This document shows, one piece after another, positions 8,058 through 20,009 of a stretch of 64,000 bases of DNA. This stretch comes from Candidatus Gastranaerophilales bacterium. GTDB lineage: Bacteria > Cyanobacteriota > Vampirovibrionia > Gastranaerophilales > Gastranaerophilaceae. The translations under genes were made by a program, and so were the position numbers. Within the stretch, counting starts at the first letter, position 1, and each line of letters starts with the position of its first letter. The notes under the pieces were generated by a model. That model was not told the origin of the DNA and ran no database searches. It was given only the letters and a program-made list of their open reading frames with translations. The DNA lies in the NCBI GenBank assembly GCA_900767135.1, contig CAAFYU010000005.1, positions 18,371-82,370 of the forward strand, written 5' to 3'.

Positions 8058-8447
8058 ATGACTATTTTGGAACTTTTTAAACTGAATAAGACCTGTGAAC
8101 ACGCAAAAGTTCGCCCTGACGTAGATTTTGCTTACTGTCCGGATTGCGGAGAACTCATTGAAAATCAGTGGTATTTAGTTCGCTGTGGCTGTTGTGGAGT
8201 CAAGTTAAAGGGGGTTATTAAAAATAAACAAATTATTCCAGAACTCCATTTTTGCCATAACTGTGGTGGGCGAGAGTTCATTGTTGAACGGATTAATAAG
8301 ATTAATTTTATAGATATAAGTTATGCAGTTCTGGTTAAAGCTGTTGTTCAAAACGGTAAAGCAGAAGATTACACTCAAAGTTGGGTTGATATAAATTTTG
8401 AAAGAAACAGTTACCCCAAAAAACTTTTGGGAGTAAAATTATCATAA
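8058..8447 (+). CDS. Multi-CxxC zinc-ribbon protein; hypothetical
   Basis: CPDCG, CGCCG and CHNCGG pairs typical of zinc ribbons. 129 aa. Confidence 0.45.
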   Translation: MTILELFKLNKTCEHAKVRPDVDFAYCPDCGELIENQWYLVRCGCCGVKLKGVIKNKQIIPELHFCHNCGGREFIVERINKINFIDISYAVLVKAVVQNGKAEDYTQSWVDINFERNSYPKKLLGVKLS

Positions 8448-8488: not shown

Positions 8489-9967
8489 TTACACTTCTGC
8501 AATTACGTCAAGATGAACGTTATTTCCGATTTCTTCACGAGAAAGCACTGTAATATCGTTCATATATGTGCTCAAAAGCGAGAAAATAAGTTGCCTGAAT
8601 TCAAGTGGTGCTACCAAAATCGGACTCTCAATATTCAAAGTCTTTGCTTGCTTGTTAATTTTATTCGCCAATTTTTCTGCAAAACTTGCATCAATTCGAA
8701 TTATAGCATCTTCACTTTCTTCAAAATTCGGCAAGAATTTGTCCATTGTTTTGTCGGAAACTTCGAATGCCGAAATTGTATTTTCTTCATTACTAAGATT
8801 TCTGCATATTTGACGTGCCATAGTTAGACGAATCTTCTTTATCAAATCTGATTTAGAGCTTTCTTCTGCAAAATCGTTGATTTTTTCAAAAATGTACGAA
8901 ATGTTTTTTATTGAAACTCTTTCTCTAACCAAACTTGTCAAAATATACCGCAAATCAGAAAGTGAAATGTAGTCAGGGATAATGTTTTCAACTAAATATT
9001 CGTTGTTTTGGCTCACGACATCAATATATTTGTCTAGTTGGTCGTAATCCAACAATTCATCAACATACTTAACTGCACAGAATTCCAAAGCCCTTGCAAT
9101 AAATTCAGACCCAGATATTCCATTTTGCCAAAAATCTTTTGTTAAAGTTTTTTCTACCCAAATGATTTTTTTACCTGTGATTTCATCTATTGCAGAAACG
9201 GAATTTTTAATTTTCTTTTCAGTGTGCAGTTCGTCTGCAAAGAACATCAAGAAGTTTGGGTAAACCGTTGCAGTAAAGACATCTACACCTCGGATTTTAA
9301 TCGAAAACTCATAAGGATTTAGGTTTTCATCATCTTGAAAAACAATTTTTGGAATTACATAACCCAACTCCTCAGTTAGCTTCAAGCGGGTTTTTACGGT
9401 TTCTGCGACGAGCTCTTCTTCTTCAATTTCGCTGTCAGGATTTAGGTAACCCAAAATTTCTTCGCTTAAACAGATTGAAAGTTTTTCTTCTTTTAGTTTT
9501 GAATACATTGCATCAGGCGAAGTTGCTTTTGCAAGTTCAAGTTTCAAATCTTCCAATTCTTTTAGTCCCGCAGAAATTTTGTCGTTCAATTTCTTTCTGC
9601 TGACAGATGCCGGAGCTTCGCCTTCAAGCTCTTTTTTTACTTTTGCAATCTTTGCTTTTTGGTCTTTAATTTTGCTTTGAATATCCAAACAAATTTCGTA
9701 AGGAGATTGTTCAGGTGAAAGCATTTTTTCCATCTGGCTTTTGAATGATGAAATGTTGATGGTATCAGCATTTAGGTCATTCGACGAAGAAACTGCTTCA
9801 CGCATAAAAATGCAATTGCACAAAATTTGCCCGTCATCGCCTTCAACTTCTTGCATACTGTAAAGTTCCCAGTTGTTCATTGACATTTCATTCAGCAAGT
9901 TTTGAAGTTCTTGCGTATTGTCGCTGGCACAAGTTTTTATTACATATTGCATTTTTTTGTTTAACAT
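8489..9967 (-). CDS. Soluble FlhA/FHIPEP cytoplasmic-domain homolog lacking the transmembrane export-gate domain. Carries an N-terminal DUF4177-like module and a coiled-coil linker.
   Basis: 492 aa with no TM segments. Internal GYVIPKIVFQDDENLNPYEFSIKIRGVDV resembles the start of the FlhA cytoplasmic domain. RYILTSLVRERVSIKNISYIFEKINDFAEESSKSDLIKKIRLTMARQI and the C-terminal ...ITVLSREEIGNNVHLDVIAEV match conserved FlhA-C segments. The N-terminal ~55 aa (YVIKT...NEMSMNNWELYSMQ) resembles DUF4177. Confidence 0.55.
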   Translation of the reverse strand: MLNKKMQYVIKTCASDNTQELQNLLNEMSMNNWELYSMQEVEGDDGQILCNCIFMREAVSSSNDLNADTINISSFKSQMEKMLSPEQSPYEICLDIQSKIKDQKAKIAKVKKELEGEAPASVSRKKLNDKISAGLKELEDLKLELAKATSPDAMYSKLKEEKLSICLSEEILGYLNPDSEIEEEELVAETVKTRLKLTEELGYVIPKIVFQDDENLNPYEFSIKIRGVDVFTATVYPNFLMFFADELHTEKKIKNSVSAIDEITGKKIIWVEKTLTKDFWQNGISGSEFIARALEFCAVKYVDELLDYDQLDKYIDVVSQNNEYLVENIIPDYISLSDLRYILTSLVRERVSIKNISYIFEKINDFAEESSKSDLIKKIRLTMARQICRNLSNEENTISAFEVSDKTMDKFLPNFEESEDAIIRIDASFAEKLANKINKQAKTLNIESPILVAPLEFRQLIFSLLSTYMNDITVLSREEIGNNVHLDVIAEV

Positions 9968-9976
9968 TATTGCTCC

Positions 9977-10747
9977 TTATTTTTTGTCGTTTTCAATAAG
10001 AATTTTCAAAGCTTCAACAGCTGTTTTAATTGCCATATCGGTATCATGGACAACAGGATTTTCCAAACCTAATTTTTCTCTTTCCTGATTTGCCACAACC
10101 AAAAATACAGAACCAACCTTGACTCTCAAAAAGCTTCCAACGATAAACAGTGCTGCTGACTCCATTTCAGACGCCAAACACCCCATCTTTTTCCAAGCTT
10201 CCCACTTGTTCAAAAGTTCGTAGTTTACAGGCATTTTTTCAGGACTGTGTTGCCCGTAAAAAGAGTCTTTACACTGAACAACACCTGTGTGATATTCGTG
10301 TCCGAGATTTTTTGCTGCCTGAACAAGAGAATTTACTACATCTAAATTCGCAACTGCCGGAAATTCAATCGGAGCGTATTCTTTTGTAGTGCCTTCCATA
10401 CGGATTGCACCTGTTGCAATAACAATATCTCCGCCTTTAACGTCAGTTTGGACTCCACCGCAAGTTCCCACTCTGATGAAGGTTTTAGCTCCAACATTTA
10501 CAAGTTCTTCCAACGCAATAGAAGCAGAAGGTCCACCGATTCCGGTTGATGTAACACTGACTTTCACACCGTTTAAAAAACCTGTGTAAGTTGTGTACTC
10601 ACGTCTGTCTGCAACAAGTTTTGCGTCATCAAAATATTCGGCAATTTTGGCACAACGTTTCGGATCACCGGGCATAATTACATATTCGCCGACATCTCCA
10701 ACGTTTAAGCCGATGTGGTACTGTTCTCCATGTTCAGAATATTTCAT
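9977..10747 (-). CDS. Purine/uridine nucleoside phosphorylase (PNP/UDP family, DeoD/Udp type)
   Basis: 256 aa with the PNP-UDP fold pattern (GDPKR..., [28 protein letters not shown]). Confidence 0.8.
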
Positions 10748-10767: not shown

Positions 10768-11226
10768 TTAAAACTGACCGCTTTTTAATTTTTGAATAAC
10801 TAAGTCAGAAATGTCAACACCACCAACAAAAATTACTCTGTAATCAACAATTGCATCAAGTTTTTGTTCTACAAGAACTTGTTTTGTTGCAGCTTGAATT
10901 TTATTATAAACTTGTTCTTCTTTACTTGCTTTTAATCTCATATAAGCATCTTGTTTAAGTTTAAATTCTCTTGCTGTTTGATCTTCAAAATTTTGTTTTT
11001 TCAAAGGAGTATCCAAAGCTTTGTATTGTTTTTCTTTATCAACCATATATTGTTGCATTTCCAACGCTTTGGCGTCAATTTCTTTTACTGCTTGTTGAGC
11101 AAAAGGGAAACCATCTTGAACTTTTTGATAGTCAATATATCCTACTCCGGCTGCATTTGCTTGGTTACCAAGAGTTAGAAATAAACCTACACCCATTAAC
11201 AAAGCTGCTAATTTTAAATTTTTCAT
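10768..11226 (-). CDS. skp: OmpH/Skp-family periplasmic chaperone
   Basis: 152 aa with a signal peptide. Lys/Gln-rich coiled-coil body. Sits directly downstream of bamA, as is typical. Confidence 0.7.
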   Translation of the reverse strand: MKNLKLAALLMGVGLFLTLGNQANAAGVGYIDYQKVQDGFPFAQQAVKEIDAKALEMQQYMVDKEKQYKALDTPLKKQNFEDQTAREFKLKQDAYMRLKASKEEQVYNKIQAATKQVLVEQKLDAIVDYRVIFVGGVDISDLVIQKLKSGQF

Positions 11227-11238
11227 ATTATACCTCCA

Positions 11239-13191
11239 TTAGTACATTATATCGCCTACACCAAAAGTAAAGTAACCATTGTTGTTACCGTTACTACCCG
11301 GATTTGTAAGTGGAATACCGTAATCGATAGACAACGGTCCCATACCCGGAACATAAAGTTTTAAACCGACACCGGCAGATACTGCATAAAGCGGTCTGTC
11401 ATATATTTTATCCGTAATTGACGGGTTGAAAATTTTACCTGCGTCAGCCCAAACTGTAAATCTCAAATTATTTAAGAAGTTAATTCTTGTTCTGTCTAGG
11501 AACGGAATAGGAGTTGCAAATTCCGCACTACCCATAATGAACGCATCGCCGGTACCAACACCACTCATTTTGAAACCTCTGATAGTGTAAGGGCCACCTA
11601 AGCGGTATGCCATAACTTCCGGCATGTTGTCACCATGGATTTTTCCACCACCCTTAGCTGTGAATGACAAAGATGATTTTTTGCCGACAGGAATATATTG
11701 TTTAACCATACCGGTCAACTTACCATGGGTTTTATCAAAATCAAGAACTCCCAATTCTTCGTCAAATCTCAAGCTAGCCATAGTACCTTTTCTGGTAACT
11801 GTTGCACTATCTCTTGTGTCATACAAAAGAGCAGGGCTCAAAGATAGGAATAACCCACCGTCTAACTGTCTTGCACGTTCTGAAATCGGAATGTTGTATT
11901 TTGAATACAAACTTGTAATTTTACCTTTATCGCCTTCTGAAACATCAATATTTTCAACCCCGAGTGAGAAAGTTCCCGTCACGTGCTTGTTAAACTTCAT
12001 GCGGTGTGCAACAGTTGCTTCTGCACCAATTCTTCTTTCAATTGCAAGTGGAACTTGGTATGAACCAAAATCACGATAGAAAATCTTGCTCATCAATGAA
12101 GTATCGGCATTATAAAAATACGGTTTGAAATAGCTCAATTCAGCCTGTAAGTTCATACGACGTTTGATAGATGAGTCGTTCAAGATTACACCGGTACCTG
12201 CGATACCGTTTAGGGAAATTCTTTCGTTACGCCCCATAAAGTTGTTATCAGCAATTCCGACAGATCCGAAAACACCAGTTACAGAGTCGATACCACCACC
12301 AACAGAAATACTTGCGGTTCTTTGTTCTTCGATATTAATTGTGATGTCGTATTTGTCAGGATCGTCAGTCAGTTCAATCTCTCTTGTAACGTCTTTAAAC
12401 GCCTGAGTTGCGTAAAGTCTTACCAAATCTTCTTTCAACAAGTTTTCGTTATAAACCTGCCCAGGCTCAGTCAACACATTACGCTCAATAACGTAATCTT
12501 TTGTCTTTTCGTTGCCGGAAATCAAAATTCGATTGATAGTACCTTCTTTAATGCTAATGTTCACAGTTCCGTCCGGATCGTCTGAAACGGAATCAATTCT
12601 CGCGAGAATATAACCTTTTGAGCTATAACAGTCTTGGATTTTAGAAATCGCATCATTCAAATCTCCGATATTTTGGGGTTTGCCTTTCATCGGCAAAAGA
12701 TAGGATAGAATTTCATCGGTAGAAATTACGGTGTTACCTTCAATCGTAAAATCTGTTACAGGTGCATTTTCAACAAGAACAATTTTTAATGTAATGCTTC
12801 CATCTGCATTATTAATCGGGATAGCTTTCATTTTTTCGGTAAAGTAACCCATTTCATAAATGGCTTTTAAATCTCTTTGAACAAGTTCTCTGCTGTAAGT
12901 ATCGCCAACTTGCAATTTCATTTGTTGCAAAATCAAAGCTTTGTCAACAACGTTATTCCCCACAAATTCAATGTTTTTTATAACTCTTTTATCTTTATTA
13001 GTCGCAGTAACAGATGCAGACGTCATGGGTGTTTCGTCTACTGCTGTCTGAGTTGCGGTTGGAGTTTGGAGTTGTGTTTGAACTGTGTCAGACTCTTTCG
13101 TGTTTCCCCAAAAGCCCTTTGCAGAACCTTGAAGAGGGCACATTATAACCAACATGAGGGCTATTAAAGATATATATTTCTTATTATTCAA
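11239..13191 (-). CDS. bamA: Outer membrane protein assembly factor BamA (Omp85/D15)
   Basis: 650 aa. Signal peptide, POTRA-like N-terminal repeats, C-terminal beta-barrel ending in an aromatic residue (…FGVGDIMY). Confidence 0.85.
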   Translation of the reverse strand: MNNKKYISLIALMLVIMCPLQGSAKGFWGNTKESDTVQTQLQTPTATQTAVDETPMTSASVTATNKDKRVIKNIEFVGNNVVDKALILQQMKLQVGDTYSRELVQRDLKAIYEMGYFTEKMKAIPINNADGSITLKIVLVENAPVTDFTIEGNTVISTDEILSYLLPMKGKPQNIGDLNDAISKIQDCYSSKGYILARIDSVSDDPDGTVNISIKEGTINRILISGNEKTKDYVIERNVLTEPGQVYNENLLKEDLVRLYATQAFKDVTREIELTDDPDKYDITINIEEQRTASISVGGGIDSVTGVFGSVGIADNNFMGRNERISLNGIAGTGVILNDSSIKRRMNLQAELSYFKPYFYNADTSLMSKIFYRDFGSYQVPLAIERRIGAEATVAHRMKFNKHVTGTFSLGVENIDVSEGDKGKITSLYSKYNIPISERARQLDGGLFLSLSPALLYDTRDSATVTRKGTMASLRFDEELGVLDFDKTHGKLTGMVKQYIPVGKKSSLSFTAKGGGKIHGDNMPEVMAYRLGGPYTIRGFKMSGVGTGDAFIMGSAEFATPIPFLDRTRINFLNNLRFTVWADAGKIFNPSITDKIYDRPLYAVSAGVGLKLYVPGMGPLSIDYGIPLTNPGSNGNNNGYFTFGVGDIMY

Positions 13192-16969: not shown

Positions 16970-17015
16970 ACTTTACTTTTCAATCCATAAAGGGTGGTTG
17001 AAACAGCTACGTTCC

Positions 17016-17330
17016 TTACGAAGTCGTTAGCTTTTTAAATTCTACCAACACCTAATGGGTGGGTGGAGCGGCACTTTTTACGAAGTCGCTTATCTTTTAA
17101 ATCGCACCAACACCTAATGAGTGGGTGAAGCTTCAAGCTTCTTACGAAGTCGCTTATCTTTTAAATCGCACCGACACCTAATGAGTGGGTGAAGCTTCAA
17201 GCTTCTTACGAAGTCGTTGGCTTTTAAAATCGCACCAACACCCAAAGGGCGGGTGGAGCGGCACTTTTTACGAAGTCGCTTATCTTTTAAATCGCACCAA
17301 CACCTAATGGGTGGGTGAAGCTTCAAGCTT
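17016..17330. repeat. Tandem array of five ~62-64 bp units. Core: TTACGAAGTCGCTTATCTTTTAAATCGCACCAACACCTAATGRGTGGGTG. Two alternating 3' variants: ...GAGCGGCACTTT (A) and ...AAGCTTCAAGCTTC (B), in order A-B-B-A-B.
   Basis: Direct reading. Units start at 17016, 17078, 17142, 17206 and 17268. The array ends at the base before the ppdK stop codon (17331). Confidence 0.9.
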
Positions 17331-20009
17331 CTATTTGCAACCTAGTGGTAATGAGATGTCTTTGGATTGTTTGAACTCAATTACCGCTTGAGCTGCTGCA
17401 AGACGAGCTTGCGGAACTCTGAACGGAGAGCAAGAAACATAATTCAAGCCAATTCTGTGGCAGAATTTTACTGATGCCGGATCTCCACCATGTTCTCCAC
17501 AGATACCACGTTTAAGGTGAGGTCGAACTTTTAGAGCTTTGTCGAGTGCTATTTTCATTAATTGTCCAACACCTTCTTGGTCAAGTGTTGAGAATGGGTT
17601 AGCTGGAAGAATTTTTTGTTCTACATAGTTTTGTAGGAACTTGCCTTCCGCATCATCTCTTGAAAAGCCGAAAGTCATCTGAGTCAAGTCGTTTGTACCG
17701 AATGAGAAAAATTCTGCATATTCTGCAATTTGATCTGCTGTTAGGGCAGCACGAGGAATTTCAATCATTGTACCAAACATATAGTCGACTCTGACGTTCT
17801 TTTCGTCCATAACTTCATTTGCAACACGTTCTAGAACTTCTTTTACGGTTTTAAGTTCATTTACGTGCCCTACAAGTGGAATCATGATTTCAGGTTTAAC
17901 ATCTAAACCTTCTTTTTTCAAGTCGCAAGCTGCATAGAAGATTGCACGAACCTGCATTTCATTGATTTCCGGATAAGTAAGACCAAGACGACAACCTCTA
18001 AGTCCCATCATTGGGTTAGATTCAGACATTGCTTCGACGATGTTTAGAAGCTTTTCATCTTCTTTGTAATCTTCGCCTTTTGCTTTTTTAGTAGCAACTT
18101 TTGCGATAAGTTCTTCCTTATCAGGCAAGAATTCGTGAAGAGGTGGGTCAAGAAGTCTGATTGTCATTGATTTGTCGCCTAATGCTTTAAACATAGCGTG
18201 AAAATCACTGTATTGCATAGGGAGCAAGTGTTCTAGTGCTTCTTTTCGAGCTTCCGGAGTACCTGCAATAATCATTTTTTGAACCCAAGGAAGTCTTTCA
18301 GGATCCATAAACATGTGTTCTGTTCTGCAAAGTCCAACGCCTTCTGCACCAAGTTCCAGAGCTTTTGCAACGTCAGCCGGTGTATCAGCATTTGCACGAA
18401 CGCCTAACAATTTGATATCGTCAACCCATTCGAACAATTTTTTGAAATTGTCGTCCATTGTAGGCGGAACAAGATGAATTGCACCGTCCATAACTTCGCC
18501 AGTACCACCATCTAAGGAGATTACGTCGTTTTTGTGGTAAACAGTTCCGTCACCGGCTGTTAGAGTTTCATTTTTAAGATCAATTGAAAGGTCTTCGCAA
18601 CCTGCAACACAAGGTTTTCCCATACCTTTTGCAACAACGGCTGCGTGAGATGTCATTCCGCCACGAAGAGTTAAAACACCTTGTGACTCAATCATACCAT
18701 GGATATCGTCAGGGCAAGTTTCAATTCTTACCAAGATAACTTTTTCACCTGCTTTGCCTCGTTCTGCTGCTTCTTCGGTGTCAAAAACGATTTTACCTAC
18801 TGCTGCACCAGGGGAAGCTGCAAGACCTTGGGCTATTTTATGTGCTTCTTTTTTAGCTTTCGGGTCAAAGTCAGGAAGTAGTACTTGATATAGTTGATTT
18901 GCATCAACAAGTTCTACTGCTCTTTCTTTGTCTATAATGCCTTCTTCGCACATTTCAACGGCAATTCTGACTGATGCTTTTGCGGTTCTTTTTCCGTTAC
19001 GAGTTTGCAAAATCCACAATTTGCCTCTTTCGATTGTAAATTCCATATCTTGAACATCTTTGTAGCCTTTTTCAAGTTTTTTCGCGATGTCAACGTATTG
19101 CTTGTAAAGTTCAGGCATTTCGTGTTCAAGTTCTGCGATAGGTTTTGGAGTTCTGATACCTGCAACAACGTCTTCACCCTGAGCGTTGGTTAGATATTCC
19201 CCATAGAACTTGTTTTCGCCTGTTGACGGGTTTCTTGTGAAAGAAACACCTGTCGCACAATCGTCGCCCATGTTGCCGAATACCATTGTTTGAACGTTTA
19301 CGGCAGTTCCGTAATTATGGTCGATTTTGTAATGTTCTCTGTATGCAACGGCACGTGGAATATTCCATGAGCGGAATACGGCTTCAATTGATTCTTCAAG
19401 TTGAACGTACGGATCTTGCGGAAAATCTTTGCCTGTTTCTTTTTTGATTAAGTCTTTGTAAGGTTGAATTAAAGATTTCCAGTCGTCTGCTGTCAGGTCT
19501 GTATCTGATTTGTATCCTTTTTCTTCTTTAATTTTGTCTAGGTAGTCTTCAAATTTTTGTCTGTCGATTTCCCAAGCAACAGAGCCGAACATTGTCAAAA
19601 ATCTTCTATATGAGTCATAACAAAATCTCGGATTGTTTGTTAGCTTAATCATACCTTCAACAGTTTGGTCGTTTAAACCTAAGTTAAGGATAGTTTCCAT
19701 CATGCCTGGCATTGAAAGTCTTGCACCTGAACGAACAGAAACTAAAAGCGGGTTTTCAGCATCACCAAATTTTTTCCCTGCTTGTTTTTCAATAGTATGA
19801 AGAGCTTCTCTAACCTCGTCCATAAGCCCTATTGGCATTTTATTGCCATGGTTAATGTAATCCATACAGGTTTCTGTGGTAATCGTAAGCCCCGGTGGAA
19901 CTGGCAAACCTAAATTTGTCATCTCTGCAAGGTTAGCACCTTTGCCACCCAAAAGGTTACGCATATCTGCATTGCCTTCTTTGAACAACCATACACGTTT
20001 TGCACTCAT
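17331..20009 (-). CDS. ppdK: Pyruvate, phosphate dikinase
   Basis: 892 aa. PPDK N-terminus (LFKEGNADMRNLLGGKGANLAEM), phosphohistidine region (GGMTSHAAVVA), PEP-utilising C-terminal domain. Has a ~12 aa C-terminal extension (…KQSKDISLPLGCK). Confidence 0.95.
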   Translation of the reverse strand: MSAKRVWLFKEGNADMRNLLGGKGANLAEMTNLGLPVPPGLTITTETCMDYINHGNKMPIGLMDEVREALHTIEKQAGKKFGDAENPLLVSVRSGARLSMPGMMETILNLGLNDQTVEGMIKLTNNPRFCYDSYRRFLTMFGSVAWEIDRQKFEDYLDKIKEEKGYKSDTDLTADDWKSLIQPYKDLIKKETGKDFPQDPYVQLEESIEAVFRSWNIPRAVAYREHYKIDHNYGTAVNVQTMVFGNMGDDCATGVSFTRNPSTGENKFYGEYLTNAQGEDVVAGIRTPKPIAELEHEMPELYKQYVDIAKKLEKGYKDVQDMEFTIERGKLWILQTRNGKRTAKASVRIAVEMCEEGIIDKERAVELVDANQLYQVLLPDFDPKAKKEAHKIAQGLAASPGAAVGKIVFDTEEAAERGKAGEKVILVRIETCPDDIHGMIESQGVLTLRGGMTSHAAVVAKGMGKPCVAGCEDLSIDLKNETLTAGDGTVYHKNDVISLDGGTGEVMDGAIHLVPPTMDDNFKKLFEWVDDIKLLGVRANADTPADVAKALELGAEGVGLCRTEHMFMDPERLPWVQKMIIAGTPEARKEALEHLLPMQYSDFHAMFKALGDKSMTIRLLDPPLHEFLPDKEELIAKVATKKAKGEDYKEDEKLLNIVEAMSESNPMMGLRGCRLGLTYPEINEMQVRAIFYAACDLKKEGLDVKPEIMIPLVGHVNELKTVKEVLERVANEVMDEKNVRVDYMFGTMIEIPRAALTADQIAEYAEFFSFGTNDLTQMTFGFSRDDAEGKFLQNYVEQKILPANPFSTLDQEGVGQLMKIALDKALKVRPHLKRGICGEHGGDPASVKFCHRIGLNYVSCSPFRVPQARLAAAQAVIEFKQSKDISLPLGCK

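Follow-up and report, generated by a model that had tools for sequence, protein, structure and literature searches.

In every type III secretion system (T3SS), the cytoplasmic domain of FlhA or SctV (FlhA-C or SctV-C) builds the central ring at which substrates dock and specificity is switched. To our knowledge, and in the literature searched, these domains have been described only as one half of a membrane protein, the cytoplasmic one. A 64-kb stretch of DNA (from here: the window) belongs to a Gastranaerophilales bacterium of the human gut (class Vampirovibrionia, Melainabacteria). In it, an initial annotation made from the sequence alone singled out an open reading frame (ORF) of 492 amino acids (aa) that seemed to encode FlhA-C as a protein of its own, without the transmembrane (TM) export gate. 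The locus raises the questions whether this is a genuine soluble FlhA paralog, where it comes from and what a docking platform detached from its gate may do.

A soluble protein with a complete FlhA cytoplasmic domain

The Pfam profile FHIPEP (PF00771) matched the protein at E = 3.1e-49 with 168.5 bits (cut-off 29.1), which excludes chance similarity, and the alignment was confined to the C-terminal half of the profile (residues 144–484 against profile positions 314–656 of 657). Likewise, residues 136–492 aligned with positions 320–678 of the 678 positions of the FlhA profile TIGR01398; because the membrane half is missing, the score of 163.7 bits was below the full-length equivalog cut-off of 772 bits. 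The FlhA profile fitted better than the SctV-type profile TIGR01399 (E = 6e-48 versus 1e-28). The closest solved structure by sequence was FlhA-C of B. subtilis (3mix, E = 7e-24), followed by FlhA-C of Salmonella, Vibrio and Helicobacter and then by SctV proteins. The highest Kyte-Doolittle mean over a 19-residue span was 1.21, against a usual cut-off of 1.6, hence there is no TM segment, and the N-terminal eight-TM export-gate domain of about 330 residues with the FHIPEP motif region is absent. An AlphaFold2 model of the paralog, built on 21 diverse family members, reached a mean predicted local distance difference test (pLDDT) value of 81, and its top Foldseek match was Salmonella FlhA-C (6ch2_C, target TM-score 0.85, about 340 columns). 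Profile match, hydropathy, model and structural match all bear out the proposed stand-alone, TM-less FlhA-C protein. Residues from about 150 to 492 constitute a complete FlhA linker plus the D1–D4 cytoplasmic domain. Although the protein scores above the FHIPEP cut-off of Pfam and shows the FlhA-C fold, it should not be annotated as FlhA, since it lacks the gate domain and the chaperone dimple (see below) and falls short of the equivalog score.

The gene and its parts are laid out as follows. Salmonella numbering was anchored on the F459A and T490M mutant chains, and residues were mapped by an alignment of about 20% identity.

8489..9967, minus strand: complete ORF of the soluble DUF4177-like / helical hairpin / FlhA-C paralog, 492 aa plus stop, ATG start
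9973..9978, minus strand: Shine-Dalgarno sequence AAGGAG, which overlaps with the upstream PNP gene's TAA stop codon (direct sequence reading)
9794..9967, minus strand: N-terminal beta-alpha-beta-beta domain, residues 1–58, probably DUF4177-like (AlphaFold2 and family PF13783 matches)
9704..9793, minus strand: acidic and Ser-rich low-confidence spacer, residues 59–88, with a short conserved FKSxMEKM helix (pLDDT 41–59; alignment)
9521..9703, minus strand: Lys/Glu-rich antiparallel helical hairpin, residues 89–149 (AlphaFold2 helices 89–115 and 122–149)
9485..9520, minus strand: FlhA-linker-like segment, residues 150–161; its SPDxMY motif is conserved and takes the position of Salmonella E351–D356 (alignments)
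9257..9484, minus strand: first part of FlhA-C D1, residues about 162–237, including the invariant R194 (Salmonella R391) (boundary and residue mapping)
9113..9256, minus strand: FlhA-C D2, residues about 238–285, with a remodelled cleft (boundary and residue mapping)
9053..9112, minus strand: second part of FlhA-C D1, residues about 286–305, including R292 (Salmonella T490) (boundary and residue mapping)
8816..9052, minus strand: FlhA-C D3, residues about 306–384 (boundary mapping, alignment)
8492..8815, minus strand: FlhA-C D4 and C-terminal tail, residues about 385–492 (boundary mapping, AlphaFold2)

The modelled N-terminal domain consists of strands 6–14, 34–42 and 48–57 and a helix at residues 18–30, with pLDDT values of about 88–95. 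The initial annotation had compared it to DUF4177. At the level of the family this similarity appears to hold, as PF13783 matched the N-termini of 17 of the 21 diverse members (best E = 1.8e-4), but the window sequence itself gave no PF13783 match at E ≤ 10. Nothing relevant on the function of DUF4177 was found in the literature. The Lys/Glu coiled coil that had been suspected behind this domain takes the form of the antiparallel hairpin in the model. In canonical melainabacterial FlhA, the aligned counterpart of the second hairpin helix is the helix behind the last TM segment. A FliJ-like (PF02050) nature of the hairpin was considered and rejected, as in Pfam and PDB the only matches to residues 72–186 of 17 members were generic coiled coils such as PCRF and TMEM120. 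Within FlhA-C, D3 carries the most conserved FHIPEP block, IIPDxxSxxDLRYILTSLxxExVSIKxIxxIFEKINDF.

Compared with FlhA (PF00771, TIGR01398), the paralog has in common the linker and D1–D4, the arginine equivalent to R391, the D456 equivalent and the D3 block. It differs by the missing eight-TM gate, by the DUF4177-like domain and the hairpin at its N-terminus, by the replacement of F459, L461 and T490, by an identity of only about 20–25% to canonical FlhA-C and by a location usually outside the flagellar operon. With SctV, InvA, YscV and MxiA it has the FHIPEP cytoplasmic fold in common (Foldseek TM-score 0.72–0.85), but their sequence match is weaker than that of FlhA and SctV proteins are full-length membrane proteins. 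The FlhA of Chlamydia is full-length as well and has a membrane domain. It is given as a flagellar ortholog in the abstract of PMC2830194; the orphan FlhA, FliI and FliF of Chlamydia are flagellar export homologs kept without a complete flagellum, which makes them comparable to the paralog. Recombinant Salmonella FlhA-C (residues 328–692; PDB 3a5i, 6ai0, 6ch1) is similarly a soluble linker plus D1–D4, and such fragments form rings in solution in an R391- and linker-dependent manner (bioRxiv 10.64898/2026.05.20.726703; PMC7911332). These are laboratory truncations, whereas the paralog is a natural separate gene with an additional N-terminal module.

The literature search, which was in part poorly targeted, returned no report on a stand-alone, soluble or truncated FlhA paralog or on a non-canonical FHIPEP architecture. 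To that extent the earlier impression that no stand-alone FlhA-C had been described stands; the sequences themselves, however, are already public under the labels 'flhA', 'flagellar biosynthesis protein FlhA' or 'FHIPEP family type III secretion protein', and some were used in Di Rienzi 2013. Nobody noted that these 'flhA' entries are truncated. For T3SS specialists the paralog comes as a surprise: a soluble, class-wide and strongly constrained protein would be a natural experiment in detaching FlhA-C from its gate and in re-specifying its binding cleft, and it is experimentally tractable in vitro.

Distribution, constraint and origin of the family

Relatives are encoded in 387 species-representative genomes, including the complete MEL.A1 genome; the best genome matches reach 97–99% identity. 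When the representatives of clusters at 50% identity were searched, about 17 clusters had the same full-length architecture, the lowest at 30–32% identity, below which a clear score gap separates the soluble paralogs from other FHIPEP proteins. All organism-named matches were Vampirovibrionia, Melainabacteria, Gastranaerophilales or Cyanobacteriota. This survey of related genomes, which the initial annotation had proposed, established that the DUF4177-like/FlhA-C architecture recurs across the class Vampirovibrionia; the family spans this class and is specific to it.

The ORF is intact, with 486–500 aa, at all 80 orthologous genome loci (80/80), and the pairwise ratio of nonsynonymous to synonymous substitution rates (dN/dS) lies between 0.01 and 0.17 in each of four regions of the paralog. 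It is a functional gene maintained by selection, which rules out a pseudogene. Over these 80 orthologs the mean identity to the window protein is 84% for the N-terminal domain, 83% for the hairpin and 70% for FlhA-C. Because flagellar gene sets are partly lost in many gut Gastranaerophilales, one might think of a remnant, a mis-called ORF or an assembly artefact of a decaying flhA. We regard this as so improbable that it can practically be dismissed, given the intact ORFs, the low dN/dS in every region, a length and architecture constant down to 30% identity, a good Shine-Dalgarno sequence and the existence of a separate canonical flhA. A frameshifted or split flhA, the refuting case named in the initial annotation, was rejected as well: the upstream gene, a nucleoside phosphorylase at 80 of 80 loci, ends 9 nucleotides (nt) before the paralog ORF (not 10 bp, as first stated), so that a TM domain out of frame would have no space in the window or at the other loci, and a full-length flhA is found elsewhere.

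The co-occurrence of paralog and canonical FlhA rests on the orthology table of Di Rienzi 2013, in whose core gene table and flagellar phylogeny the paralog orthologs of MEL.A1, MEL.B1, MEL.B2 and ACD20 were counted as a second flhA. There, MEL.A1_1462 (K02400) stands beside 1464 (no hit; the skp of this block), 1465 (K07277, bamA) and 1466 (K07056, rsmI), and MEL.B1.001_146/148/149 have the same order as this neighbourhood and as the window. Because of this identical synteny, the MEL.A1_1462 orthogroup, which includes ACD20, MEL.B1 and MEL.B2, is assigned to the soluble paralog. A second K02400 orthogroup (MEL.A1_731 and partners) follows fliF (734), a gene without hit (733) and fliH (732). 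Since the same fliF-x-fliH-flhA context surrounds P0160 and P0355, which are FlhAs of roughly 700 aa with 7–8 TM segments, this orthogroup is the canonical FlhA. By the table, the soluble paralog coexists with a canonical eight-TM FlhA in all four tabulated genomes. The canonical melainabacterial flhA directly follows fliH (L089 6173-12127; L090-L093 8134-12091), not flhB as in many bacteria; the order is fliF, a FliG-like protein, fliH and flhA, and the protein in the FliG position has 347–387 aa and no Pfam match on record.

A neighbour-joining tree of FlhA-C (362 columns, 200 bootstraps) with 10 other FlhAs for comparison placed the soluble paralogs in one monophyletic group (99%). Together with the canonical melainabacterial FlhA-C and a membrane-tethered family described below, they were separated from the 10 other FlhAs at 100%. 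This grouping suggests a duplication of the lineage's own flhA and not an acquisition from outside. The FlhA-C part of the window protein is about 25% identical to the canonical FlhA-C of its own lineage and 20% identical to that of Salmonella.

A second non-canonical FlhA family exists in the same lineage. Its members have a soluble N-terminal domain of about 190 aa with an 'xFDYKxFAE' start, 2–4 TM helices, the linker and FlhA-C (P0172, 692 aa, L087 10001-12079; also P0152, P0158, P0162, P0166, P0184 and P0292-P0301). Like the soluble paralog, this family has FlhA-C without the canonical gate domain and lies outside the flagellar operon; unlike it, it is anchored in the membrane. Its FlhA-C is about 50% identical to canonical melainabacterial FlhA, versus about 25% for the soluble paralog, and for this reason the membrane-tethered family is a much younger duplicate nested among the canonical melainabacterial FlhAs. 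Its proteins outscore canonical FlhAs against the window protein. The GC content of its locus is 0.36, similar to Gastranaerophilales, its annotation is only FHIPEP/FlhA, and no description of a membrane-tethered FlhA-C family was found in the literature. As both families are annotated 'flhA' (K02400), counts of flagellar genes in genome surveys are inflated.

Two further arrangements of these modules were observed. The N-terminal module of the membrane-tethered family also occurs as a stand-alone protein of 225 aa ending in two TM helices (L071 14240-14917, plus strand) in a Gastranaerophilales metagenome-assembled genome, where it is encoded downstream of the soluble paralog at a distance of 2.8 kb, so that this module exists both fused and free. 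P0148 (895 aa) and P0289 (952 aa) contain two tandem FlhA-C domains, both halves of which match the window protein.

Ring interface, chaperone cleft and a possible role

The Salmonella linker segment E351–D356 (EASWND) aligns with the SPDxMY motif of the paralog, and this motif is conserved across the family alignment. R194, aligned with Salmonella R391, is invariant in 21 of 21 family members. In Salmonella, R391 forms an inter-subunit salt bridge with linker residue E351 and is needed for the FlhA-C ring and for substrate-specificity switching (bioRxiv 10.64898/2026.05.20.726703). Both the ring-forming arginine and the linker motif are retained in the paralog.

The chaperone-binding site presents a different picture. 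F459, L461 and T490 of Salmonella FlhA bind FliS, FliT and FlgN, with F459 and L461 being needed for FliS and FliT complex formation (PMC5932034), and the hydrophobic dimple of FlhA-C receives a conserved Tyr/Leu of FliS and FliT (PMC5932034; PMC7911332). The corresponding D2 residues of the paralog are F243 (I440), D261 (D456), T264 (F459) and K266 (L461); W280 and G283, belonging to a KDFW motif, are invariants specific to the paralog. Among 20 members of the paralog family the positions are occupied as follows.

I440 equivalent: aromatic in 17/20
D456 equivalent: kept in 16/20
F459 equivalent: T/S in 17/20
L461 equivalent: K/R in 16/20
T490 equivalent: R/K in 11/20

The hydrophobic D1–D2 chaperone dimple made of these five residues is accordingly not found in the paralog family. 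In canonical melainabacterial FlhAs, position 459 is still F/Y.

These substitutions bear on the idea of a decoy or inhibitor, in which soluble FlhA-C would compete with the gate ring for chaperone-substrate or ATPase complexes and lower export. The FlhA-C fold is complete and includes the linker, D456 is kept and the protein coexists with canonical FlhA, all of which speaks for such a function. The suggestion of the initial annotation that the protein titrates or mimics the docking platform is nevertheless weakened: a chaperone-titrating decoy is disfavoured because the F459, L461 and T490 positions are consistently replaced and only D456 is kept. Moreover, the paralog is under strong purifying selection also where filament, cap and junction genes are absent and there is no 'late' substrate to titrate, and the N-terminal domain and hairpin, which a simple decoy does not need, are more conserved than FlhA-C. 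We consider this explanation quite unlikely.

The paralog occurs both in fully flagellated genomes and in filament-less ones that keep export core, rod and hook. The flagellar gene sets of MEL.B1, MEL.B2 and ACD20 are complete. MEL.A1, which has an ortholog at 79% identity, is devoid of filament, cap, junction and L/P-ring genes and keeps the export apparatus, rod and hook, namely fliF/H/I/P/Q/R, flhA/B and flgC/E/G. According to a 2026 preprint, the full flagellar set is present in only about 25% of gut Gastranaerophilales, the rest keeping genes that include flhB, fliI and flgG.

Our preferred reading, which we hold tentatively, is that the paralog may belong to the flagellar-type type III export apparatus as an accessory, soluble subunit, in keeping with its presence in filament-less species with an export core and with the fliJ-fliK-flgD-flgE genes that adjoin it in one clade (see below). 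It might oligomerise in the manner of FlhA-C through the SPDxMY linker and Arg194, with either itself or the FlhA-C ring of the gate as the partner. The remodelled D1–D2 cleft (F459 to T/S, L461 to K/R, T490 mostly to R) would then be offered to a partner other than FliS, FliT or FlgN. Since such a partner would differ from the late chaperones, this points to early (rod/hook-type) export, or to a coupling with FliH/FliI/FliJ/FliK, as the probable field of action, and not to the delivery of filament subunits. The N-terminal domain and the hairpin probably supply a further interaction, since both are more conserved than FlhA-C. A subunit of this kind would bear on why most human-gut Melainabacteria keep export core, rod and hook without filament genes.

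A bolder and, in our estimate, unlikely extension is that several FlhA-C platforms serve one flagellar-type T3SS: besides the gate FlhA there would be a ring of soluble DUF4177-FlhA-C and, in part of the species, a membrane-tethered, gate-less FlhA-C. By stacking on the gate ring or alternating with it, the soluble ring would select a separate class of substrates, and the filament-less gut species would possess a dedicated secretion device.

Gene neighbourhoods

Precomputed Pfam matches confirmed the seven-gene order on the minus strand of the window that the initial annotation had read: response regulator, hypothetical, rsmI, bamA, skp, PNP_UDP_1 and the paralog. The three nearest upstream genes are the following.

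9977..10747, minus strand: nucleoside phosphorylase PNP_UDP_1, 256 aa, probably co-transcribed (Pfam)
10768-11226, minus strand: skp (OmpH) (Pfam)
11239-13191, minus strand: bamA (POTRA + Omp85) (Pfam)

A scan for an operon promoter and terminator was uninformative: shuffled sequence contained more promoter-like sites, and no terminator candidate was convincing. As had been stated, the window holds no other flagellar or injectisome gene, no such Pfam family being present on any called gene within the 64 kb. This does not mean that the genome is without them, since relatives carry canonical FlhA and an export core.

In the main gut clade, which comprises six clusters with less than 62% mutual identity, bamA-skp lies upstream of the paralog. 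The slot between skp and the paralog exists in three forms, as it is empty, filled by PNP_UDP_1 or filled by a non-homologous pyrimidine-nucleoside phosphorylase. The operon position given in the initial annotation thus applies to the window and one large clade, but other clades place the gene elsewhere. In five of these, PSP1, ClpP, ChlI-like, TPR and glycosyltransferase genes are the neighbours and none is flagellar. In the ACD20/RIFOXY clade the paralog follows two ABC permeases, and at a distance of about 3 kb the opposite strand carries a flagellin gene.

A location in a flagellar or T3SS gene cluster, absent from the window, was found only in the P0417 clade. The protein of this clade has the same architecture without TM segment and is 38% identical to the window protein; on five independent contigs its gene follows infC-rpmI-rplT and precedes fliJ-fliK-flgD-flgE by 147 bp on the same strand. 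The neighbourhood yields no family-wide partner, and the only functionally coherent neighbours are flagellar.

The same neighbourhoods invite another explanation, namely that the FlhA-C scaffold has been repurposed outside type III export, e.g. in envelope biogenesis or with a link to nucleoside salvage. The persistence of bamA-skp upstream in six such divergent clusters speaks in its favour, and the filling of the slot by either of two non-homologous nucleoside phosphorylases hints at a purposeful arrangement. The late-chaperone cleft is unconserved, the other contexts are mostly housekeeping genes and flagellar genes are missing from the window. However, the bamA-skp link is not family-wide, being absent in sister clades, and no mechanistic tie of a cytoplasmic protein to periplasmic Skp or outer-membrane BamA is evident. 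Retention of the ring-forming arginine and the linker motif, restriction of the family to the only cyanobacterial class with flagellar genes, canonical FlhA in all four tabulated genomes and the adjacency to fliJ-fliK-flgD-flgE in one clade likewise argue against it. We regard such repurposing as possible but on balance doubtful.

Several points also weigh against the accessory-subunit reading. In most clades the gene is located away from flagellar genes. It closes the bamA-skp-(nucleoside phosphorylase) cluster of the main gut clade, and in sister clades it comes after a 173-aa hypothetical, PSP1, ClpP, ChlI-like ATPase or TPR proteins or stands beside thiamine genes. Oligomerisation and partner are deduced from a few conserved residues through an alignment of about 20% identity, and the flhA and export core of the source genome are presumed from relatives such as MEL.A1. 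The neighbour-joining tree has long branches and few outgroups, and the host organisms are uncultured.

Further observations concern these loci. The arrangement at L098 10001-15688 (and L100-L103), in which the paralog lies between infC-rpmI-rplT and fliJ-fliK-flgD-flgE on one strand, may represent the ancestral location of the duplicated gene, given that the ACD20 cluster reads fliH-flhA-fliI-x-x-flgE. The slot between skp and the paralog (window 9977-10747 versus L108 2247-3551, L155 5914-7233 and others) looks like an in-place, non-orthologous displacement of the nucleoside phosphorylase; the non-homologous enzyme has about 434 aa with the domains Glycos_trans_3N, Glycos_transf_3 and PYNP_C.

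On the other side of the paralog, a convergent ORF of 129 aa (8058-8447, plus strand) ends 41 nt from its stop codon. It has no Pfam match and is Cys-rich, with several CxxC pairs that suggest a zinc ribbon. It stands beside the paralog only in the source contig (L081), and its homologs in three other loci lie about 11 kb away, hence the two genes are not conserved neighbours. Immediately downstream of the stop codon of ppdK, an intergenic segment (17015-17332) without tRNA or Rfam match consists of a tandem repeat of five 64-bp units with 83% matches.

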